A DNA stretch of 58,902 nucleotides from an uncultured Candidatus Peribacteria bacterium (GCA_964451705.1 CAYVIV010000003.1:1-58902); one strand, 5' to 3'; shown: positions 34,082 through 44,203, counted from the stretch's first letter. Made by a program: numbers and translations. The notes: generated from the letters alone by a model not told the origin.

Positions 34082-35113
34082 ATGAATAGTTTTACAACCA
34101 TAAATAACGACTTCCAAGAGATCATCAGGGAAGTAATGTCGATTCTAAGCCAAAAAGAACAAGAGGTTATCAGCAAACGAAACGCCATTACCACACCGGT
34201 TAGAATGACACTTCAAGCAATTGGAGAGGATATGTTTATAACAAGAGAAAGAGTACGTCAAATAGAAAAAAAAGCTATCTCCAAAATAGAAAGAAATCAG
34301 AAAAACCTCAAAATCAAAGAGGTTGTTGCTCTTGTAGAACAAAGCTTAAAAAAATTCCAAAACCTTGCCAAAGAAAAACTATTCATTAAATATCTTGAGC
34401 AAGAAGGCACAAAACAAGAAGCTTTAGGAGTTTACTATATAGCTCTGCAAATCTCACAACAAACAGGTTTGCTGCGTAAAACTCAAACCCTTGCTAAAAC
34501 CTGGTATAATAAAACTCTTTTAAACGAAACAGAAATCAAAGGAGTTGTCAAAGAAGCCGTTTTATTATTAAAGTCCAAAGAATCAGCTATAGAGGAACAA
34601 ACATTAATTGATAGTATTGCAAAAAAACTTTCAATTAGCGCCGAATTGGTTCCAAACATCTTAAATATTACCAACGAGGTAAAAAATTTAGAAGGGGTTT
34701 ACGGGCTAGCAAACTGGAGAAATGTAAACCCAAAGAGTATCAAAGATAAAGCTGTCATTATCCTGAAAAGAGCACACCGACCATTGCATTTCAGAACAAT
34801 CAATAAGTTAATTCATGACTCGCAGTTTGATCACAAACAAGTAACTGTCGAGGCAGTCCACAACGAATTAATAAGATACGAAGATTTTGTCTTAGTAGGA
34901 AGGGGATTATATGCCCTATCTGAATGGGGATACACAAAAGGCACTGTTAAAGATGTTATCTACCAGATTCTTAAAGAGCATGGACCATTAAAAAAGAAGG
35001 AAATAGTTGAACATGTACTGAAAAAAAGGCAAGTCAAAATAGGAACTATTTCTCTGAACCTACAGAAAAATACTGAGTTTAAACGAGTTGGAAGAGCTAT
35101 TTACTCAATTTAA
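34082..35113 (+). CDS. sigma-70 region-4-like HTH protein with C-terminal HARE-HTH-like domain
   Basis: LSQKEQEVISKR......MTLQAIGEDMFITRERVRQIEKKAISKI is a region 4.2 pattern. The C-terminal LHFRTINKLIHD...VHNELIRYEDFVLVGRGLYALSEWGY resembles HARE-HTH. No sigma region 2 is present. Confidence 0.6.
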   Translation: MNSFTTINNDFQEIIREVMSILSQKEQEVISKRNAITTPVRMTLQAIGEDMFITRERVRQIEKKAISKIERNQKNLKIKEVVALVEQSLKKFQNLAKEKLFIKYLEQEGTKQEALGVYYIALQISQQTGLLRKTQTLAKTWYNKTLLNETEIKGVVKEAVLLLKSKESAIEEQTLIDSIAKKLSISAELVPNILNITNEVKNLEGVYGLANWRNVNPKSIKDKAVIILKRAHRPLHFRTINKLIHDSQFDHKQVTVEAVHNELIRYEDFVLVGRGLYALSEWGYTKGTVKDVIYQILKEHGPLKKKEIVEHVLKKRQVKIGTISLNLQKNTEFKRVGRAIYSI

Positions 35114-35555
35114 TATCTTTCCAGATTGCGAATATCTCCTCATCTGATAAATGTTTCAGATTCGAGATAGTAAAATTCAGATTACAGATCTTCAAATATA
35201 AAGTGGACAGTTGCACAGCTGTTCCTTTTCTGAAATTTGCACGATTGGCAATATCGGTTTTATGCGCTTTTATAGCAGCAACCATTGTCCTTCTAGATGG
35301 GCGTTGAATACTCTTAGGTATATTTTGTTTATTTACAACCTTCTCCTTAGTGACTACCTCAACTTGTTCGGTAATACCTGTATCTTTTGAACTAGGAATC
35401 AACTCCTCTATTGACTCTAGAACCTCCGGCTTCTTCTCAGGGATTCCAGGGGTGCTTAATTCACTGGATTGGTTGATAATTTCATCATCTTTGGGTAGTA
35501 TTTCCATAATTAAAATTTTAAATAATGAAACTAATAAAAATTTTATTGTCGACAC
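35097..35555 (-). CDS. hypothetical protein
   Basis: Only an ORF of 152 aa. An alternative start at 35507 (MEILPKDDE) would remove the overlap with the divergent gene at 35525. No motif recognised, and coding status is unproven. Confidence 0.35.
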   Translation of the reverse strand: MSTIKFLLVSLFKILIMEILPKDDEIINQSSELSTPGIPEKKPEVLESIEELIPSSKDTGITEQVEVVTKEKVVNKQNIPKSIQRPSRRTMVAAIKAHKTDIANRANFRKGTAVQLSTLYLKICNLNFTISNLKHLSDEEIFAIWKDIKLSK

Positions 35556-37030
35556 TATTATGGACTAGTTTTGCATTCGCAGCAACTATAGAACCAAACT
35601 CGATAATTAACCTTATAAACTCAGAGGATTTCACTAGAATAGATGAACCTGTAGTCTTTGAGGCAGAAAGCTTTAGTGATATAGAAGACTTAAACAAAGG
35701 TCAGATTAAATATGTCTGGGATTTTGGTAACCAAAACTATGATGAAGGTCAAAAAGTTGTACATAGATATCAAAAGCCCGGAAATTATAAGGTCAGCCTT
35801 AGCACAACATACAAAGATGATACATTTAATGCAGTCAAGGATATATTTGTTTCTAAAACCAATATATTAGTAATTACAGATAACCAACAGGAGTCTGAGA
35901 ATATTCAACAGTTTAAGAAAACTGCAGAAAGTTTTGATATCTATGTAAACGCAGTCAGCGCGTATAACAATGCCTCAAACTTTGTAAGTTCAGAAATCCT
36001 CTCACAAAAGATTACTAATAGCAGTAACCTGCAACAATATGAATATATAATCGACTGGACTGCTCAAAGTATAGGCAAAAATACCATCCAAAAAGTTCAG
36101 CAAAAAAACACAAATAGTTTTAAAAACATAACATTTATAAATCTTTCAAAAGCCAAACAAATCACAATTAGCAGCAGACAAAAGAAACAATTGTCGATTT
36201 CAGACATTATAACAATCAAAAAATCTGCATTATATACCCTACTTGAAAGTCAATCTAAACAAGATTTTCTTAATAAACTCGAGACACAACAACATGAATA
36301 TCAAATTCACGGAGTGACTCACAAAATCTCAGAAAAATTGCCATTTACACAAATATTCAACTTTATGCGAGAAAATGGAGTTACCGAGCAAAGCCTATAT
36401 TTAATCATAATAATACCATTACTTGCTTTATCTATCACATTCGCCAAGCAGGTTGTTGGTATAGAAGCCATAGGGTTTTATACACCTCTGATTACAAGCC
36501 TGTCACTTTTATATATAGGAATTAAAGTCGGTACTGTGATCTTTATAGGTTTGTATATTTTCTCCTATTTCGTCCAAAAATATCAAAGTCGCAATAAATT
36601 TCACTATCTGGCCAAAAATGCTCTTTTAGTTTCCTGTTTTTCATTAATTACATTGGTTGTGCTTACTATCCTCACTTATTTCCAAGGTTCTCAAGCAGCC
36701 CTAATCAACATTGCAATTTTTCCTATGGTTGTCTTAATTACTATCGTAGAAAGCTTTGCTAAGCAAATATACATGAAAGGTTACAAGTTAGGATCTAAAA
36801 AGGTTCTGAGCACCTATGTAGTCTGCCTAGCAGCCTATATCTTAGCAGGGGGCACTCTTAACATATTGAGCAAAACTTTCTCCTTTACATTTCTAAAAGA
36901 TCTCATAATGCAAATTCCAGATTTAACTCTTGTTTTGATTGGGTTAATTATATATTTAGGGAACTGGAAAGGACTCAAATTAATTGAATATTACAGAATT
37001 AAGTCATATAACGATAACATAGAGGAGTAA
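35525..37030 (+). CDS. secreted PKD-domain ectodomain fused to a 7-TM module of the type partnered with RimK-like ATP-grasp ligases
   Basis: Signal peptide MKLIKILLSTLLWTSFAFA and PKD signature YVWDFGNQNYDEGQKVVHRYQKPGNYKVSL. Seven C-terminal hydrophobic helices begin at VGIEAIGFYTPLITSL and end at GNWKGLKLIEYYRIKS, resembling the '7TM usually fused to inactive transglutaminase' family. The C-terminus is ...NDNIEE. Confidence 0.7.
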   Translation: MKLIKILLSTLLWTSFAFAATIEPNSIINLINSEDFTRIDEPVVFEAESFSDIEDLNKGQIKYVWDFGNQNYDEGQKVVHRYQKPGNYKVSLSTTYKDDTFNAVKDIFVSKTNILVITDNQQESENIQQFKKTAESFDIYVNAVSAYNNASNFVSSEILSQKITNSSNLQQYEYIIDWTAQSIGKNTIQKVQQKNTNSFKNITFINLSKAKQITISSRQKKQLSISDIITIKKSALYTLLESQSKQDFLNKLETQQHEYQIHGVTHKISEKLPFTQIFNFMRENGVTEQSLYLIIIIPLLALSITFAKQVVGIEAIGFYTPLITSLSLLYIGIKVGTVIFIGLYIFSYFVQKYQSRNKFHYLAKNALLVSCFSLITLVVLTILTYFQGSQAALINIAIFPMVVLITIVESFAKQIYMKGYKLGSKKVLSTYVVCLAAYILAGGTLNILSKTFSFTFLKDLIMQIPDLTLVLIGLIIYLGNWKGLKLIEYYRIKSYNDNIEE

Positions 37031-39336
37031 TGCAGCCAAAAGACTACCTAGGTATGAATCTTAGGAATTTAAAATATATCGACACTGATAACAAAAAGGC
37101 TATAGACTTTACTAATAGCAAACTTAAAACAAAGTTTTTTTTATCTGCAAGACAAATAAGAGTGCCAAGACTCCATAGGATAATCAAATCGCACAAAGAC
37201 CTGCAACGACTAGACTTCGCAAGTTTGCCTGGAAACACAGTTTTAAAGCCAAACAAGGGTTCACAAGGACGGGGGATTATTCCATTTAAAAAAAGACAAG
37301 GGACAATCTTTACCACAGTTAGCAATCGTGTTTATGATGATCAGTTTATAAGTAAACATATTTTAGATATTCTAGATGGCAAGTATTCCATGGGTTTCTT
37401 ACCTGATCTTGCATTCTTTGAGGAAAAAATTGAATCCCATAAAGACCTAAAAGACCTAGCGCCAATTGGGCTACCGGATATCAGAATAATCATTTATAAA
37501 GGCTTTCCTGTCTTAAGTATGCTGCGCCTGCCAACGGAAGAATCTAAAGGCAAGGCCAATCTAAATTCAGGCGCAATAGCAATGGGGCTTGATTTAATAA
37601 GTGGTAAAGTTATTAGTAGCTACCAAAATGGTAAACTCATAAAATCCAAATATATCAATTCATTCCAAGTACCGTATTATAAAGAGTCTCTAGAAATGGG
37701 GGTTAAAATAGCAGACATTACAAAGCTGAATTTTTTTGGCTGCGACATTGCAGTCTCAAAAAACGGTCCGGTCTTAATTGAACTCAATTCGAGGCCCGGT
37801 CTCAAGATTCAATTTGTCAATAATATTGGGCTTAAGAAAAGGTTAGAAAAAATTGATGATTTAAAATACAAAGGACAAAAACAGGCCATTAGTCTTGCAC
37901 ATCACCTATTTAGTAGTAGCAGTCTTGAAAAAAACACTCAAAATCCTAAAACAATCAATATAAATAACAAAGCAACAATTCTTTACAAAAACAAAAAAAT
38001 ACAAGCTCAAATATTAATTCGAACAGACAAAAATTCCACTTACCTATCAAAAGATATACAAGCAGAATTAAACATTAAGAAAGACTCAAAAATAAAAGTC
38101 AAAACAAATCAATTTTCAGAAATAATCAAACTTAAAACCCTAGACGATATCCCGCCACAAAGTATTGTATTGGGTAAAAAGATATTATCTGAATATAATG
38201 TCAGCTTTAACAATCCTAGTAAAAAAATTCAACTTCCAAAGGCGATTGCTAACAAACAAAATATATTTTACAAGCCACAAATTAACTATGGACAGGTGGA
38301 TTACCAAATCTATCAAATTTGTCAAAGTTTAAAGTTAGTCGAAAAACTCAAGCCCATAAACCTAAAACAGGAACTAAAAAAATTCGCAAAGGATCCGAGT
38401 TACAATCCTCAATTTAGGTATGATTCCTTCGACGAGTTTGTATATAACAAACAAAATGCCTTACTCAATATAAAATGTGATGACTCTGCTCTAGGACAAA
38501 TATATGAGGAGAAAAAAACTGAATTGTTCAATCTATTAAACATTATCCAGAATATTGGCAGTCCAGAAATATTGCACTATTTTTCAAAATATATTCCCGC
38601 TCCAAGCTATCATGAGTATAAATATGCAAAAAAACTAAGAGCATTAAGAACACCTATCAAATCCAAAAATTTAAACACAAAGGAAATCAAAAAAATAATT
38701 CAAAAGACACTTGATGAATACAAGCTAAATGATTGGAAAATTCAAGAGAAAAAAACAATGCTAGGAAAATTCAGTGTGAATAAGCAAGACAAAATCTTTA
38801 TTAAACAGGGTACTTCTGTAAGCGAGTTTAGACTCAAACAAATAATAGCGCACGAAATTATGACACACGTTTTCACCACAGAAAACGGCAAAAAACAACC
38901 ATACTTGCTATTTCAAGATGGCATGGCAAATTATATTCAAACACAAGAAGGTCTGGCAATTTATAATGAATATGCATTAGTAGGACAACAAGATAGATAT
39001 TTTTCCGCAGGCAATATGATTAGTTCATATATCAGCTTAGAAAAAAGTTTTAGCAGCGCGGTAGCTGAACTTATTAAAATTGGTTTTACAAAAACATCAG
39101 CTATAAAACATGTTCTTAAAACAAAAAGAGGTCTCAGCGACACCTCTAAACCAGGTGGCATTACTAAACAATGCATATATACTAGAGGTGCTTTAAAAGT
39201 AGAAAAATTTATTAAAAATGGAGGTGATATTAAAGATTTATATGTTGGAAAAATAGATATTGATAAACTAGAAGTACTTAAAAAACTTAAATGCCTCAAC
39301 AAAGCCAAACATATGCCAAAACAGTATTTATCTTAA
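37030..39336 (+). CDS. fusion protein: RimK-related ATP-grasp (alpha-L-glutamate-ligase-like) + degenerate retropepsin-like middle module + DUF1704/QEGLA (MATCAP-like) metallocarboxypeptidase domain
   Basis: N-terminal LGMNLRNLKYID...VLKPNKGSQGRGI...LPDIRIIIYKG...KANLNSGAI..GLD...VLIELNSRPGL reads as ATP-grasp. The middle region is at about 37950..38225. HEIMTH is at 38851..38868 and QEGLA at 38944..38958. No signal peptide or TM. The start overlaps the upstream stop (TAATG). Confidence 0.75.
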   Translation: MQPKDYLGMNLRNLKYIDTDNKKAIDFTNSKLKTKFFLSARQIRVPRLHRIIKSHKDLQRLDFASLPGNTVLKPNKGSQGRGIIPFKKRQGTIFTTVSNRVYDDQFISKHILDILDGKYSMGFLPDLAFFEEKIESHKDLKDLAPIGLPDIRIIIYKGFPVLSMLRLPTEESKGKANLNSGAIAMGLDLISGKVISSYQNGKLIKSKYINSFQVPYYKESLEMGVKIADITKLNFFGCDIAVSKNGPVLIELNSRPGLKIQFVNNIGLKKRLEKIDDLKYKGQKQAISLAHHLFSSSSLEKNTQNPKTININNKATILYKNKKIQAQILIRTDKNSTYLSKDIQAELNIKKDSKIKVKTNQFSEIIKLKTLDDIPPQSIVLGKKILSEYNVSFNNPSKKIQLPKAIANKQNIFYKPQINYGQVDYQIYQICQSLKLVEKLKPINLKQELKKFAKDPSYNPQFRYDSFDEFVYNKQNALLNIKCDDSALGQIYEEKKTELFNLLNIIQNIGSPEILHYFSKYIPAPSYHEYKYAKKLRALRTPIKSKNLNTKEIKKIIQKTLDEYKLNDWKIQEKKTMLGKFSVNKQDKIFIKQGTSVSEFRLKQIIAHEIMTHVFTTENGKKQPYLLFQDGMANYIQTQEGLAIYNEYALVGQQDRYFSAGNMISSYISLEKSFSSAVAELIKIGFTKTSAIKHVLKTKRGLSDTSKPGGITKQCIYTRGALKVEKFIKNGGDIKDLYVGKIDIDKLEVLKKLKCLNKAKHMPKQYLS

Positions 39337-40344
39337 AAACAGGCAGGCATCACCAAACGAGTAAAATAAATATTGCTTGAAAATAGCATGCTCATAAATC
39401 GCTAAAGCTTGTTTTGTCCCAACAAAAGCAGATATCAACATAAATAGGGAGCTTTTAGGTAAGTGAAAATTGGTCAGTAGGCCATCGACCACAAAGTCAT
39501 TAAAGGGAGGTTGTATGAAAATATCAGTCTCTGAGTTTCTAGCAATAAACTCTTCGGTAGCGAAATCATAACAGGACTGCAAAGTTCTTAAAGTAGTAGT
39601 CCCAACTGCTATAATTTTTTTAGACCTCTTCTTGTAATCATTTAATCTACTAGCAACCTGTGTTGTGAGTTCAAATGATTCAGAGTGTAATCTACCCGAA
39701 TCTAATTGCTGCCTTGTTAATGCCCCAAAAGTTCCTAGTCCAACATTTAGATTTAGGTATTCCAAGGCTACACCTTTAGTTTTTAAGTCAGCTAGTAGAG
39801 CTTCATCAAAATGTAATCCTGCTGTAGGCGCCGCTACACTACTACCATTGCAAGCGTATACAGTCTGGTAGTCACTTGCATATAACTCAGGGTTCTTAGT
39901 GTTGATATAAGGAGGTAAGGGTATTTGCCCTTTTGATTCTAATATTAAAGCTAAATCCGTATCTGCTTCCAGTTGGATTACAAAGTACTTATCGAGCAGA
40001 GATATTATCGAAAATTTAAAGTCAGGAGTCTCAATCCATTTGTCTTTCTTATACACAGAAGGTTTTTTCAAAAAAACTTTATATTGATTTTGACCTAGAT
40101 CCTCTAGAAAGAAGATCTCACAAAGCTTTTTCTGATAATGAAACAAATACCTAGCATTCACTACTCTAGTTTGATTAAATACCAAGACATAAGAGTCATC
40201 TAGTATCGATAAAATATCTCTAAAAATCAAATCTGCAATCTCATGATTGTTATAAAACAACAACTTACAATCCGTTCTATTCTTGTAAGGTTTTTGAGCA
40301 ATCAGTTTAGCAGGCAAATCAAAATCAAATTTTGATAAATCCAT
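39328..40344 (-). CDS. queA: S-adenosylmethionine:tRNA ribosyltransferase-isomerase
   Basis: FDFDLPAKLIAQKP, PLPPYI, AAPTAGLHF and AVGTTTLRTLQS. Confidence 0.9.
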   Translation of the reverse strand: MDLSKFDFDLPAKLIAQKPYKNRTDCKLLFYNNHEIADLIFRDILSILDDSYVLVFNQTRVVNARYLFHYQKKLCEIFFLEDLGQNQYKVFLKKPSVYKKDKWIETPDFKFSIISLLDKYFVIQLEADTDLALILESKGQIPLPPYINTKNPELYASDYQTVYACNGSSVAAPTAGLHFDEALLADLKTKGVALEYLNLNVGLGTFGALTRQQLDSGRLHSESFELTTQVASRLNDYKKRSKKIIAVGTTTLRTLQSCYDFATEEFIARNSETDIFIQPPFNDFVVDGLLTNFHLPKSSLFMLISAFVGTKQALAIYEHAIFKQYLFYSFGDACLFLR

Positions 40345-41477
40345 TATTTACCCCAGTTAGTAACGAGCATAGTTTGCTCTCTATCTGAATTAAAATCAAG
40401 GTCAGTTAAACGCATGCAGATAAGTGTCATATCATCATTTTGGACAGTATCTCCAACGAAGGTCACAACATCTTTAGAAATTGCTTCAAAGACCTTTAAA
40501 CTATCTCCTAAATGACCATATTTAGAAACACATGCAGTAAGTTGTTCTAAGCCAAAAAGCTCTTGTGATTCATTAATAGCCTCTGTAATACCATCTGAAT
40601 ATAAAACAACAATATCATTTGTTTTTAATTTAATTTCCTTTTCAGATACTATTTCTGTAATATCATCTGCCATAGCAAGAGCAATTCCACCAGTAGTGAT
40701 GACCTCTGTAACTCCTTCGTCTGCTCTATAGACTAAAATATGCTCGTGACCACAGCCAGTATAAAATATACGTTTAGATTTAGGTTCAAATCTAAAAAAA
40801 ACAGAAGTCATGAACATAGATGAGTTAACTCGTGGTTTTAACAGCTTATTTATAGACACTGCTAAATCGTGAGTAGTTTTGGCTTTTGGAAGCAAAACCT
40901 CGTAAAGTGTATTTGTAATCATCATCACCAAGCCTGCTGGAGCTCCATGACCCGTAACATCGCCTACGTACACAAAAAATTGATCGTTATGTGCAGTTAC
41001 TGCAAAGCTATCACCTCCAATTTCTTCGGCACTACGTGTTTTAGCCACTGTGTCCAAACCAGGAATTTTGGGAATGCTCTTAGGCAAGACACTCTGCTGT
41101 ATAGAAGAAGCTATCGATAGCTCTTCCGACATTCGAGACCCCTCCTTTAACATATAAGAAATCTTTTCTATATTTTTGGTAATATCATTAAAGAAAAATG
41201 CAATTAAGCCAAATTCATCCTTGGAAAAAATATTCAATCTTTCATAAGGTTTTGAGGCAATTAAAGCAGCAATTTCCTTAGTCACCCTGTCTAAAGGTTT
41301 AATAAACAGTCTAAATAAAGTTATATAGGTTAAAACAATTGCTAAAAACAAAAGGCCCAGCACTACATATTCACTTGCTTCTATCCAAAGCAAAGATAGG
41401 ATGAAAGGCAAAAAATATAATACAGAAAGTAAAATTATTTTCTTGAAAATTCGGTATCGACTCGTGCTATATAACAT
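40344..41477 (-). CDS. membrane-bound HAMP + PP2C/SpoIIE-family serine phosphatase (RsbU-like)
   Basis: Two N-terminal TM helices and a HAMP-like linker (FIKPLDRVTKEIAA...FNDITKNIE). SpoIIE motifs are IGGDSFAV, VGDVTGHGAPAGLVM, YSDGITEA and DDMTLICMR. Confidence 0.85.
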   Translation of the reverse strand: MLYSTSRYRIFKKIILLSVLYFLPFILSLLWIEASEYVVLGLLFLAIVLTYITLFRLFIKPLDRVTKEIAALIASKPYERLNIFSKDEFGLIAFFFNDITKNIEKISYMLKEGSRMSEELSIASSIQQSVLPKSIPKIPGLDTVAKTRSAEEIGGDSFAVTAHNDQFFVYVGDVTGHGAPAGLVMMITNTLYEVLLPKAKTTHDLAVSINKLLKPRVNSSMFMTSVFFRFEPKSKRIFYTGCGHEHILVYRADEGVTEVITTGGIALAMADDITEIVSEKEIKLKTNDIVVLYSDGITEAINESQELFGLEQLTACVSKYGHLGDSLKVFEAISKDVVTFVGDTVQNDDMTLICMRLTDLDFNSDREQTMLVTNWGK

Positions 41478-41840
41478 TTACTTGATTAAATTAGAAACTA
41501 CATCATCAACTGTAGTGTGGACTGGAATGATCTTAGTAAGGCCAACTGCCTCAAAAACATCGAGAACTTGCGGTTGTACCTGAGCAAAATATAAGTGTTT
41601 ATGTGCTTGCTTTAATGAATAGTAAAGTGACACTAAGAAACCAACACCTTCGGAGTTAGTAAAGTTAAAATATCTTAAATCAAATATTAAATGTTTCTCT
41701 TTTAGTTCTGCAGAATATCTAGTCAATACAGAGCGGACATCTTCTATATTAGTTTTATCGAGTTCTCCTTTAAATTCTAGGGTTACAAAGTCATCAGTCG
41801 CAATTTGTTTATCTATAACATTTAAATCTAGCTTTGCCAT
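41478..41840 (-). CDS. STAS-domain anti-sigma-factor-antagonist-like protein
   Basis: 120 aa. LIFDLRYFNFTNSEGVGFLVSL aligns with the SpoIIAA/RsbV D.s.v.f.DSsGlG segment, and the phosphorylatable Ser position is retained (NSEG). Confidence 0.8.
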   Translation of the reverse strand: MAKLDLNVIDKQIATDDFVTLEFKGELDKTNIEDVRSVLTRYSAELKEKHLIFDLRYFNFTNSEGVGFLVSLYYSLKQAHKHLYFAQVQPQVLDVFEAVGLTKIIPVHTTVDDVVSNLIK

Positions 41841-41872
41841 ATATTATTTTATATAGGCAAAGTATAACTAAA

Positions 41873-44203
41873 TTAATACTTTCTTAAAAGATCTAACACT
41901 GTAAAATATTCTTTACTGGCGCCCAAAAAGTTATATAACTCTGAAATTTGACTGCAAAGCAATTTATTGTGACTGTTGTTTGCCTCAGCAGATTCAAGCT
42001 CTGAGTAAAGCAAGTGCACCTCAAACTTTAAACGTTGGTCTATAAGATGTAACAACTTATCATCAGATAAATCTAAAACTAAACTTCTAATGAAAATCAG
42101 TTCCTTCTGAGAAAAACGTTCGTATAATAAAGATAAAAAGTGATTTGGTTTAGATTTTTTATATAGATACAACTGATAAAACAATCTTTCAATCACACTT
42201 TTTGTACTGTCATTAAATGCAACTAAAATATCATTTGACACAGATATATCTGAATTCTGGTTTAACATCGCAAATAAAAGTAAAAATCTCTTGTTTTGCA
42301 TACTTGCTTGTGACATAAAATCTACTAATTTGTTAGCACGCTTACAACAGTCAAACTGAGACAAGACCCTTAATATATAATAGTTTAATCTAGGAGTATC
42401 TTCATGAATTAAATCACAAAGTACATTCGCTAAACTTGGATCGTTAAAGGACAGTAGGACAGGGCATACAATATGAACATTTTCTTCATCTAAATACAAC
42501 TTAAGTAGTTGACCAATATCCAAATCTAAATTAATAGTTAAGTCTGATAATAAAATAAAAGACAAAAATTCGCCCCGTGTAATAGAATCAAGTTCTAATG
42601 CACTTAGGTTTTTATAAAGTTTTTGAATTGCCTTGTTTGTAAATGGTAAATCCGCAATTTCACTACTATATTTAAGTAAAATAGTATTTAAAGTCGGTAA
42701 AATATATTGAATATCTACAGACTCATTGTTAGCCAAATTAATTAAGTCCGGAACCAGTAGGTAGTCAGCTTGCCGGGAAATAATCTCAAAAACTTTTTTC
42801 AAGACAATAGGATCATTAAATCCTTTAGAATTAATTGCGTCCAATAAGTACCTAGCATTATCAGACGAGGGATTCTGTTCCAAAATAGATAAAGCGTTCA
42901 AAATCACTTTTGGATCCTCAGAAGTTTTCAAGTGCATTCTTGGTACAAAAGTATAAGAGCTATCAAATTTGGAAATAGAGTAAATAGATCCAATCAGAAC
43001 AAAAATAGATAAAATATTTAAGAGCGTAAAATTCACGAGATTAAAAGAAAAAAGCAAAAATACAGAAGTTAAGACCAAAGCTAGTGGGCGGACAAATCCC
43101 TCAAGGAATTCTAAAATTTTTGCTCGGGAACTATGTGAAAAAACATAAAATACACCATGGTAAGCATTAGTGTGTAAGACATTCGAGATTTCAAAATTAA
43201 ACTTATTAATCAAAACCAAGGCTAAACCCGGACTAAACAACATTAAAAATGTACTAGAAATCAGCACTAGAGGACACACCAACATCGATTTAATAACACC
43301 AGAAAACATTAATATTCTAGAAGCTAACAAGGCTTGAAATAAAAAAGTAAAAAAACCAAAAAATATGTGTAACATACCCAGGTCAAATGCTAAGTTAGAC
43401 GCATGTCCACTAACAGAATCAGAAAAATTAAAAACCTGAAAAATATATTGTACTTCCAAGAGTCCAAAGTAGGCGAATTGGAAAAATACAATTGCTGCAA
43501 TGGCCAACAATAATTTGCTTGAAAATAAATGACTTAAAGCAATCGTATCACTACTGTTACTATGAGTCTTATTAATCAACAAAGTTAAAGGATGCTTAAT
43601 AGAACTAGTAGTGAAGTATGATAAGACTGGCAAAATAAACAAAACAAAAAACGATAAAACTAAAAGTAGCGAATTTAAAGGTAAGTAAGCTGACACCACG
43701 GAGACAATAAAACCAGCAAATATTAAAGCAACAGTGTCTGCTGATTCTATTACAGGAAAAACCCGAGTAGATTGAGTTGGGGTAAACAAGCTCTCAACAA
43801 ATAACAATTTAGCGATCTTAATTTGGGATAAAAACAAAGAGACAATGAACAGTAAAGAAGTAATATAAACATAATTATTTACATCGAAACTGAAAAAGGC
43901 CAGCAAAGCAAATACCACAGTCGCAAATACAGAAAAAATAAGTAAAGAAATAGGCTTATAGCGATTAATAGGGACTCTATACAACAAATAGCCTAAAATA
44001 GAAGTTAAACCATGTGCTAAAAATAAAAATGCAATAGAGGCAATACCAAAATATCCAATAAATTCCACCACCAAAACAGTCCAGGCAATTACAAAAGCAG
44101 CACGAACAAAAAACGAAACAAGCCAGCATATAGTTACATCAAATATCTCAGCAGGATGTACATTTACGGCTTTCGTAATAAATTGTTTTAAAAAACCTAT
44201 CAT
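41873..44203 (-). CDS. large polytopic membrane protein (MFS / ATP:ADP-antiporter-like N-terminal half) with C-terminal alpha-helical repeat domain
   Basis: The first 400 aa contain about 11-12 hydrophobic helices. The N-terminus (V.P.E......W...F) loosely resembles TLC/AAA-family nucleotide transporters. The last 370 aa are L/N/D-rich, helical and HEAT-like. Weak assignment. Confidence 0.45.
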   Translation of the reverse strand: MIGFLKQFITKAVNVHPAEIFDVTICWLVSFFVRAAFVIAWTVLVVEFIGYFGIASIAFLFLAHGLTSILGYLLYRVPINRYKPISLLIFSVFATVVFALLAFFSFDVNNYVYITSLLFIVSLFLSQIKIAKLLFVESLFTPTQSTRVFPVIESADTVALIFAGFIVSVVSAYLPLNSLLLVLSFFVLFILPVLSYFTTSSIKHPLTLLINKTHSNSSDTIALSHLFSSKLLLAIAAIVFFQFAYFGLLEVQYIFQVFNFSDSVSGHASNLAFDLGMLHIFFGFFTFLFQALLASRILMFSGVIKSMLVCPLVLISSTFLMLFSPGLALVLINKFNFEISNVLHTNAYHGVFYVFSHSSRAKILEFLEGFVRPLALVLTSVFLLFSFNLVNFTLLNILSIFVLIGSIYSISKFDSSYTFVPRMHLKTSEDPKVILNALSILEQNPSSDNARYLLDAINSKGFNDPIVLKKVFEIISRQADYLLVPDLINLANNESVDIQYILPTLNTILLKYSSEIADLPFTNKAIQKLYKNLSALELDSITRGEFLSFILLSDLTINLDLDIGQLLKLYLDEENVHIVCPVLLSFNDPSLANVLCDLIHEDTPRLNYYILRVLSQFDCCKRANKLVDFMSQASMQNKRFLLLFAMLNQNSDISVSNDILVAFNDSTKSVIERLFYQLYLYKKSKPNHFLSLLYERFSQKELIFIRSLVLDLSDDKLLHLIDQRLKFEVHLLYSELESAEANNSHNKLLCSQISELYNFLGASKEYFTVLDLLRKY

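Follow-up and report, generated by a model that had tools for sequence, protein, structure and literature searches.

A CPR gene pair linking a PKD-7TM membrane protein with a conserved Glu-Glu tail to a fused ATP-grasp ligase and MATCAP-type carboxypeptidase: a candidate cycle of tail extension and trimming

RimK, RloC and LysX/ArgX carry out ligation onto the C-terminal Glu of a protein, and the Rlo operon of Pseudomonas has roles in osmotic tolerance, biofilm formation and beta-lactam sensitivity. We know of no substrate for the ATPgrasp_ST/RloC ligases, the 7TM_transglut proteins (named for seven transmembrane, TM, helices) or the bacterial MATCAP/DUF1704 ('QEGLA') proteins. All three families meet in a two-gene module of an uncultured Candidatus Peribacteria bacterium (GCA_964451705.1 CAYVIV010000003.1:1-58902; this whole stretch of 58,902 nucleotides is called the window). 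Gene 1 encodes a PKD-7TM membrane protein ending in -Glu-Glu (-EE), and gene 2 encodes an enzyme in which a ligase and a metallocarboxypeptidase-like domain are fused. We read the two genes as the version of the Rim/Rlo ligase-peptidase system, tied to a 7TM protein, of the Candidate Phyla Radiation (CPR; Peregrinibacteria). On the sequence comparisons below, we put roughly even weight on the proposal that the fused ligase uses the -EE end of gene 1 as its acceptor, with Glu the likeliest residue to be added, and that the tail is trimmed back by the MATCAP domain.

Among described bacterial systems, one that comes close is the RloABC operon, known from Pseudomonas aeruginosa and from further Gammaproteobacteria (Lormand et al. 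2025, PMC12239564). RimK extends the C-terminus of RpsF with Glu and can in addition synthesise poly-alpha-Glu in free form; poly-Glu is cleaved by RimB and by the secreted RloA, and the defects of an rloA triple mutant are suppressed by deletion of rloB or rloC (PMC12239564). MATCAP/TMCP, a peptidase of the tubulin tail cycle, requires a penultimate Glu, removes Tyr, Phe, Ala or Glu from ...EE-X ends, and shortens poly-Glu chains (PMC10499314). An earlier note on the window held that modules of this type were known only from comparative genomics, a statement made outdated by the RloABC genetics published in 2025 (PMC12239564).

Both open reading frames (ORFs) of the module, their TAATG overlap and the -IEE end of gene 1 are as the earlier note described them, and the HEIMTH and QEGLA motifs lie at exactly the positions that it gave. 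The features are listed here in window coordinates, with residue numbers (aa) of the protein concerned:

35525..37030, plus strand: gene 1, ORF of 501 aa, ending ...YNDNIEE
35525..35590, plus strand: signal peptide (aa 1-22, ...FAFA/AT; hydropathy peak at aa 4-22)
35645..35833, plus strand: PKD domain (aa ~41-103; Pfam PKD_4 and PKD, Foldseek match to ColG PKD)
35837..36349, plus strand: alpha/beta ectodomain, unassigned (aa ~105-275; no Pfam match)
36353..37006, plus strand: 7TM_transglut domain with seven TM helices (aa 277-494; Pfam 6e-19, hydropathy)
37001..37027, plus strand: gene 1 tail KSYNDNIEE, predicted to be cytoplasmic; Glu-Glu codons (GAG GAG) at 37022..37027
37028..37032, plus strand: TAATG stop/start overlap (translational coupling); TAA at 37028-37030, gene 2 ATG at 37030-37032, sharing the A
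37030..39336, plus strand: gene 2, ORF of 768 aa
37039..37914, plus strand: RimK/RloC-like ATP-grasp ligase domain (aa ~4-295; Pfam, NCBIfam, Foldseek)
37936..38229, plus strand: degenerate RimB/RloA-type retropepsin-like domain (aa ~303-400; hhalign; the D-T-G column reads R-T-D)
38287..39333, plus strand: MATCAP/DUF1704 (QEGLA) metallocarboxypeptidase-like domain (aa ~420-768; Pfam, NCBIfam, phmmer, Foldseek)
38851..38868, plus strand: HEIMTH (aa 608-613), in the MATCAP-like domain
38944..38958, plus strand: QEGLA (aa 639-643), in the MATCAP-like domain

The fused enzyme is common in the Peregrinibacteria and in CPR lineages close to them, forming more than 115 clusters at 90% identity, and its hosts include Peregrinibacteria, Gracilibacteria, Dojkabacteria and other Patescibacteria. 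A genome scan with one genome per species gave 412 relatives; the best 80 of these 412 were analysed as loci, and all 80 carry the full-length fusion. The catalytic residues looked for by the earlier note are present in the alignments: the ligase residues K73, E131, D150, R152, D239, E251 and N253 are invariant in 82 of 82 unique fusions, and the peptidase residues H608, E609, H613, E640, G641, K699, R700 and G701 in 81 of them, the remaining one having a gap. Of the 80 genome loci, 73 have an ORF that matches the 7TM profile immediately upstream of the enzyme gene and on its strand, and in most homologous loci the stop of the 7TM ORF overlaps or abuts the enzyme ORF.

The tail of the membrane protein is conserved as well. 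Among 78 unique 7TM partners of fusions, whose median 7TM-domain identity is 49%, 59 end in EE, 13 in EEE and 2 in EEEE; the other four are one protein with a single E, two short forms (...LIFKNH and ...LIFKQN) and one frameshift fragment. For background, of the 682 neighbouring ORFs with 200 aa or more, 2 (0.29%) end in EE, and among window ORFs of at least 60 aa (58.9 kb) gene 1 alone has a two-acidic-residue end. The -EE end is found with a PKD ectodomain (the window and L003), with a different ectodomain (L006) and with none (a 241-aa Dojkabacteria protein, L007). It holds across differing ectodomain types, and close relatedness does not account for its conservation. The encoding of two, three or four Glu residues (EE, EEE or EEEE) resembles a set of ligase products, and the candidate acceptor peptide from the gene 1 tail is ...EYYRIKSYNDNIEE.

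Tail and enzyme were also compared over genome and metagenome loci together, 80 further loci having come from a metagenome scan seeded with short 7TM relatives; counts are of unique 7TM sequences with enough flanking sequence, and MATCAP was scored within the locus. When MATCAP is fused to the ligase (76 partners), 73 tails end in EE or more (EE+), one in a single E and two otherwise, which fits the conserved, acidic C-terminus that the earlier note proposed to look for. When MATCAP is a separate gene in the locus (15 partners), six tails are EE+, six end in a single E, two in D and one otherwise, so that the last residue is acidic in 14 of the 15. Where the locus lacks MATCAP (23 partners), the corresponding figures are four EE+, two single E and 17 other. 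The association of MATCAP with the tail has a Fisher p, uncorrected for phylogeny, of 4e-10 for EE+ and 1e-12 for any acidic end. A fused MATCAP thus makes an EE tail nearly obligatory, but an EE tail does not require MATCAP.

The state of the retropepsin motif can be set beside these tails. Of 38 enzymes without MATCAP, 36 have D[TS]G[AS] intact, as do all 5 loci in which MATCAP lies upstream (7TM tails ...YGSE or ...ND); the motif is intact in none of 10 enzymes from the remaining separate-MATCAP loci (mostly with MATCAP downstream and ...IIEEE tails) and in none of 81 fusions. Judged from these sequences, the evolutionary series is one in which a ligase with an active retropepsin and a 7TM partner would have acquired a downstream MATCAP gene, with decay of the retropepsin and appearance of the EE(E) tail, before the three-domain fusion arose. 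The comparative series would in this way record the replacement of one peptidase by another, from active retropepsin, through dead retropepsin plus a separate MATCAP gene, to the fusion. The MATCAP-upstream arrangement was seen in six metagenome loci (L114, L119, L128, L130, L131 and L133), where a gene of 430-450 aa precedes the 7TM gene and the tails read ...TLESYGSE; DTGA is intact in L114, L119, L128 and L131, the MATCAP-upstream loci with a complete downstream enzyme.

Gene 2 has no signal peptide and no TM helix, and is predicted to be cytoplasmic. The earlier note described it as a ligase/carboxypeptidase fusion; both of these domains are there, but the note missed a third, degenerate retropepsin domain between them. 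The ligase domain matches Pfam ATPgrasp_ST (PF14397; aa 12-276, 1e-49) and NCBIfam TIGR02291 (2e-58; 197.6 bits, under the equivalog cut-off of 314), and stays below the cut-off of the RimK family TIGR00768 (33 bits vs 143). The C-terminal domain matches MATCAP (PF08014; aa 452-764, 6e-37, 128 bits vs a Pfam gathering score of 27) and TIGR02421 QEGLA (1e-42; 146 bits, under the equivalog cut-off of 339). A phmmer search of PDB sequences finds human MATCAP (7z5g, E 6.6e-5), with HEIMTH, TQEGLA and KRGLSDTSKPG of gene 2 aligned to HEIGTH, TEEGLA and KRGQTDTSLPG. The AlphaFold2 (AF2) model of gene 2 has a mean pLDDT (the model's confidence score) of 87; its best Foldseek match is likewise 7z5g (E 3e-13, target TM-score 0.60), next come RimK structures (5zct, 4iwx, 5zk6, 7qys; E ~1e-10), and then LysX/ArgX and cyanophycin synthetase. 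The likeness to RimK and MATCAP folds expected by the earlier note is therefore found, but that to TTL is not. A TTL-type ligase was rejected, there being no PF03133 match in gene 2 (E<=0.01) and no TTL in the top 50 Foldseek matches; precomputed PF03133 matches of unstated strength are listed for a few gene 2 homologues.

The domain that separates ligase and peptidase is visible as a beta-rich unit in the gene 2 model (aa ~303-400). When 29 family members are combined into a profile of this region, hhalign aligns it with RimB/RloA-type retropepsins (probability 98.6%, E 1e-15), and with Aeromonas and Legionella RloA alone (probability 90.4%, E 1.4e-6). The catalytic Asp-Thr-Gly column of the retropepsins is Arg-Thr-Asp in gene 2, and among the 82 unique fusions Asp is kept in 41 and Gly in only 9. 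The third domain is a retropepsin homologue that has lost its motif, and gene 2 is therefore an RloC-like ligase, a dead RloA/RimB-like domain and a MATCAP in one chain.

Gene 1 consists of a signal peptide, a PKD domain, an alpha/beta ectodomain, an RloB-type 7TM domain and the -EE tail. Hydropathy agrees with the earlier note on the signal peptide and the seven TM helices, which span aa 291-480, and Pfam and NCBIfam return the families that the note expected in both proteins (PKD and 7TM_transglut in gene 1, ATPgrasp_ST and MATCAP/QEGLA in gene 2). The Pfam matches of gene 1 are PKD_4 (PF18911; aa 52-103, 8e-10), PKD (6e-6) and 7TM_transglut (PF14402; 69 bits vs a cut-off of 25). The PKD beta-sandwich fold is confirmed by a Foldseek match of the AF2 model to the ColG PKD domain 4tn9 (target TM-score 0.78). 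This is the only trustworthy structural match of the gene 1 model, because the model, built from 12 sequences, reaches a pLDDT of only 62, with low confidence in the alpha/beta ectodomain. The NCBIfam RloB profile matches gene 1 over positions 310-505 only, the membrane half (43 bits vs a cut-off of 900). The alpha/beta ectodomain occupies the place of the inactive transglutaminase domain of RloB: PF14400, the Pfam profile for that domain, has no match in gene 1, and aa 105-275 have no Pfam match even at E<=1 (three homologues). The ectodomain is the least conserved part of the system, being variable or missing in relatives.

The N-terminus of gene 1 is predicted to be outside the cell and the C-terminal tail cytoplasmic, from hydropathy, the positive-inside rule and a natural 7TM-ligase fusion, which accords with the topology of the earlier note. 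The C-terminus shares its side of the membrane with two K/R-rich loops (aa 351-365 and 412-426), each of which has five basic residues, and the C-terminal segment itself has four; these three regions would be on the cytoplasmic side if the ectodomain is outside. The natural fusion is an unannotated 584-aa ORF on plasmid CP007061 of the archaeon Halobacterium sp. DL1 (L090:4170-5924), where a 7TM_transglut-type domain is joined to the N-terminus of ATPgrasp_ST; the 7TM C-terminus and the ATP-using ligase are therefore on the same side. Where MATCAP is a stand-alone protein in related loci, it lacks a signal peptide. The residues that all 7TM classes keep group on the cytoplasmic face (K364, E409 and a GL(R/K)LxEYxR(F/I) helix), and the C-terminus comes 9±1 residues past this helix in EE and non-EE classes alike, a constancy that suggests a conserved docking geometry.

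Like RloABC, the module has a 7TM_transglut gene adjoining and co-directional with the gene for a cytoplasmic ligase of the ATPgrasp_ST family (TIGR02291-like), and it includes a retropepsin of RimB/RloA type. However, its ectodomain is PKD plus an unassigned alpha/beta domain and not an inactive transglutaminase, and its retropepsin domain is cytoplasmic, fused to the ligase, catalytically dead and without a signal peptide, whereas RloA is secreted and active. The module has also gained a metallocarboxypeptidase of MATCAP type, it belongs to a CPR host, and its 7TM protein ends in a conserved -EE, unlike RloB. Control RloB tails are variable and not acidic (...LAKARS in Legionella adelaidensis and ...TPGKDK in Aeromonas caviae), and none of 120 Legionella-clade RloB clusters ends in EE; this control spans two lineages only, the Legionella clade and Aeromonas, because the search returned just Legionella-clade proteins.

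With RimK-RimB-RpsF the module shares a RimK-fold ATP-grasp enzyme paired with a peptidase able to remove the ligase product, and an acceptor-like -Glu-Glu end. It differs in that the candidate acceptor is a membrane protein and not S6, the TIGR00768 cut-off is not reached, the peptidase is a zinc carboxypeptidase and not an aspartic endopeptidase, and all enzyme parts are in one chain. The tubulin tail cycle, in which TTL/TTLL enzymes are opposed by MATCAP/TMCP (KIAA0895L) and CCP, has in common with it the MATCAP fold, the HExxxH and EEGLA motifs and an opposing ATP-grasp ligase, and the MATCAP family of that cycle works on ...EE-X ends and removes C-terminal Glu (PMC10499314). In contrast to the tubulin cycle, the ligase here is RimK-like and not TTL-like, writer and eraser are fused, and the putative target is a 7TM protein. 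Also close to it are CPR two-gene modules of 7TM protein and ATP-grasp-retropepsin from metagenomes, which have the same 7TM family, ligase, gene order, coupling and tail length, and often a PKD ectodomain, but lack MATCAP, have DTGA intact in 36 of 38, and have mostly basic or neutral 7TM tails.

The components themselves and the association of 7TM protein, ligase and peptidase are already known (Pfam and TIGRFAM families; RloABC, 2025), and the fused protein has been named automatically in databases, for example as 'DUF1704 domain-containing protein' or 'tyrosine/phenylalanine carboxypeptidase domain-containing protein'. The earlier note knew of no account of the fused architecture with a PKD-7TM partner, and in the searchable literature, which did not cover Iyer et al. 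2009, we likewise met with no publication on the fusion of ATP-grasp, retropepsin and MATCAP, on its PKD-7TM partner, on the near-invariant -EE tail or on a retropepsin giving way to MATCAP.

How such a system might work can be outlined from the comparisons above. The 7TM protein would dock the soluble enzyme by way of its cytoplasmic face (K364, E409 and the GLK/RLxEYxR helix) and present a free -Glu-Glu end about nine residues beyond the docking helix. The ATP-grasp domain would extend this end, most probably by one or more alpha-linked Glu residues, and the MATCAP-like zinc carboxypeptidase of the same chain would restore the -EE state encoded in the genome. The dead retropepsin domain may be a relic of the ancestral peptidase that now most likely serves in dimerisation or in binding of the acidic tail. 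Tail length would then be a reversible, ATP-dependent mark on a membrane protein. Glu is favoured as the added residue by the likeness of the fold to RimK/LysX, by the variation among encoded EE, EEE and EEEE ends and by the poly-Glu specificity of related peptidases, and a Glu addition is likelier than a Tyr cycle because the nearest structures of the ligase are RimK and LysX/ArgX, not TTL. That the mark controls envelope or osmotic homeostasis is a guess from the analogy to RloABC. Gating by the PKD ectodomain is pure speculation, since the ectodomain varies or is absent among relatives. None of the computational findings on which the earlier note would have abandoned its write/erase cycle was obtained; the tail as acceptor and substrate, Glu as the residue added, and whatever the mark controls are nevertheless things that we infer.

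In bacteria, the module may correspond to the cycle by which residues are added to and removed from tubulin tails. The broader idea of a bacterial protein 'tail code', in which a RimK-like ligase lengthens the cytoplasmic -Glu-Glu end of a membrane receptor and a fused MATCAP-type carboxypeptidase reverses this, in a prokaryotic forerunner of the tubulin tyrosination/glutamylation cycle, is put forward tentatively, as somewhat more doubtful than not. The presence of ligase and peptidase in one cytoplasmic chain beside a partner with a near-invariant -EE end makes for a specific hypothesis that can be transferred to the proteobacterial systems. If it is true, it would provide the first known substrate both for a bacterial MATCAP/DUF1704 enzyme and for an ATPgrasp_ST ligase, and it would tie the animal detyrosinase/deglutamylase MATCAP to a bacterial ancestry in which it opposed an ATP-grasp ligase on an acidic C-terminal tail.

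Several observations weigh against the tail as acceptor. Because MATCAP was scored within the locus only, a gene elsewhere in the genome would escape, and the lack of phylogenetic correction affects both Fisher values. Three partners of fused enzymes lack -EE, though those enzymes keep their catalytic motifs, and in 6 of 80 fusion loci the flanking sequence is present but the adjacent 7TM gene is missing. In Halobacterium the 7TM domain leaves no C-terminus free. Ligase-retropepsin enzymes without MATCAP in the flanks can likewise be accompanied by EE(E) tails, so such a tail is not exclusive to MATCAP. The epistasis of RloB and RloC to a secreted peptidase in P. aeruginosa implies that their product reaches the periplasm (PMC12239564). 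A prospective check gave a mixed outcome: of five 7TM representatives, two basic-tailed PKD-7TM proteins had MATCAP-less partners with intact DTGA, as predicted, but P0274, with a ...DVEE tail, also had a MATCAP-less partner and the prediction failed (the other two were an orphan and a contig too short, leaving three informative). A class of 7TM proteins with ...EDEEE tails has no MATCAP nearby and an MnmA gene downstream. The rule that an EE tail implies a MATCAP nearby was given up, having failed for P0274 and the ...EDEEE class.

The -EE tail might instead be no more than a docking or pseudo-substrate motif, product-like in the pocket of the MATCAP or in the acceptor pocket of the ligase, which recruits or inhibits the enzyme while the true substrate is elsewhere. 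The encoded tail is indeed the exact product state of a MATCAP-type reaction (PMC10499314), its length of about nine residues in EE and non-EE classes suggests a structural contact regardless of chemistry, and 7TM protein and ligase are physically joined in Halobacterium. However, both active sites are strictly conserved, so catalysis must act on something; the operon encodes no alternative substrate; and EE/EEE/EEEE variation fits an extendable end rather than a fixed ligand. On balance we regard a role in docking alone as unlikely. Another possibility starts from the capacity of RimK to synthesise free poly-alpha-Glu (PMC12239564): the ligase would make a free polymer or peptide such as poly-alpha-glutamate, the 7TM protein would export or sense it, and the cytoplasmic MATCAP would recycle the excess. 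This would amount to the Glu/poly-Glu homeostasis discussed for RloABC. The loss of the periplasmic RloA peptidases is suppressed by deletion of rloB or rloC, and RloA cleaves poly-Glu, so the product of the Rlo system arrives in the periplasm (PMC12239564). RloB tails vary and are not acidic, and in Photobacterium low salinity strongly induces both a QEGLA gene and RimK (PMC10308900). Such a polymer seems distinctly improbable here, where the two peptidase-type domains are in the cytoplasm and the surroundings of the gene pair encode no secreted peptidase, and it would leave the 96% conservation of -EE among partners unexplained, unless the tail acts as a primer.

It is also conceivable, though we think it very improbable, that the enzyme modifies some other protein with an acidic C-terminus, such as ribosomal protein S6, and that the 7TM protein merely regulates or localises it. 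The six fusion loci without an adjacent 7TM gene would fit, as would additional RimK-like genes that neighbour the fusion in L005, L007 and L071, and MATCAP-less enzymes whose own C-terminus is -EE (6 of 38). Against this stand the adjacent and translationally coupled 7TM gene in about 90% of loci, the position of gene 1 as the sole window ORF with an acidic dipeptide end, and the TIGR00768 (RimK family) score of 33 vs 143 bits. A gene of ~160 aa upstream of four 7TM-less fusions was considered as an alternative partner and rejected; it is a housekeeping neighbour, because it is LeuD-like.

Some further observations concern tails and ligases in relatives. An exhaustive phmmer search for 7TM representatives, from which the five of the prospective check were drawn, gave 594 matches, and among the 135 complete C-termini in the top 150 of these, 51 are EE+, 14 end in a single E, 4 in D and 66 otherwise. 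A third recurrent tail type, ...[DN]x[AS]QE, occurs in proteins of PKD-7TM length (P0262, P0270, P0277, P0278, P0343 and P0356); one protein of this type (L178) has no adjoining ligase gene. Where the 7TM tail is non-acidic and MATCAP is absent, ligase-retropepsin enzymes that themselves end in -EE were often found in metagenome loci (L091:4237-5541, L095-L097, L115, L125 and L129), with the ends ...DDIEE, ...DDVEE, ...MMEE, ...LPEE, ...GLEE and ...RHEE. Acceptor swapping, in which the enzyme bears -EE when the 7TM protein does not, was not significant (6 of 38 MATCAP-less enzymes with a non-acidic 7TM tail vs 0 of 14 with a 7TM protein ending in EE; Fisher p = 0.17). The extra RimK-like ATP-grasp genes lie directly downstream of the fusion, one at L005:8441-9367, two at L007:8494-10437 and one at L071:8404-9315; these loci are from Gracilibacteria and Dojkabacteria, and L005 and L071 have no adjacent 7TM gene.

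The window matches a JGI metagenome contig of 120 kb. The surroundings of the gene pair are syntenic with a Candidatus Peregrinibacteria genome over dnaE, a sigma-region-4/HARE-HTH gene, the PKD-7TM gene, the fusion, queA, a SpoIIE phosphatase gene and a STAS gene. Upstream in the window (34082..35113, plus strand) is a gene for a 343-aa protein with sigma-70 region 4 (aa 19-69) and a C-terminal HARE-HTH as its sole domains, whose counterpart in the other Peregrinibacteria genome is at L003:1477-2568. Downstream (39328..44203, minus strand), queA is convergent with gene 2 and overlaps its 3' end by 9 nucleotides, whereas queA of L003 is co-directional; past queA come genes for a SpoIIE-type phosphatase, a STAS antagonist and a 776-aa membrane protein (weak match to the major facilitator superfamily), and the Peregrinibacteria synteny on this side extends to the phosphatase and STAS genes. 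Scans for promoters and terminators around the gene pair gave no excess over shuffled sequence. An anti-phage defence system was rejected, since PADLOC gave no match for the gene 1 or gene 2 protein. The GC content of the window is 35.4%, and the 42 window ORFs of at least 150 aa stop at TAA (30), TAG (11) or TGA (1). TGA is nearly unused as a stop in the window, with the ORFs still intact under the standard bacterial code, and a reading of the loci in code 25 (UGA = Gly) leaves the conclusions unchanged.

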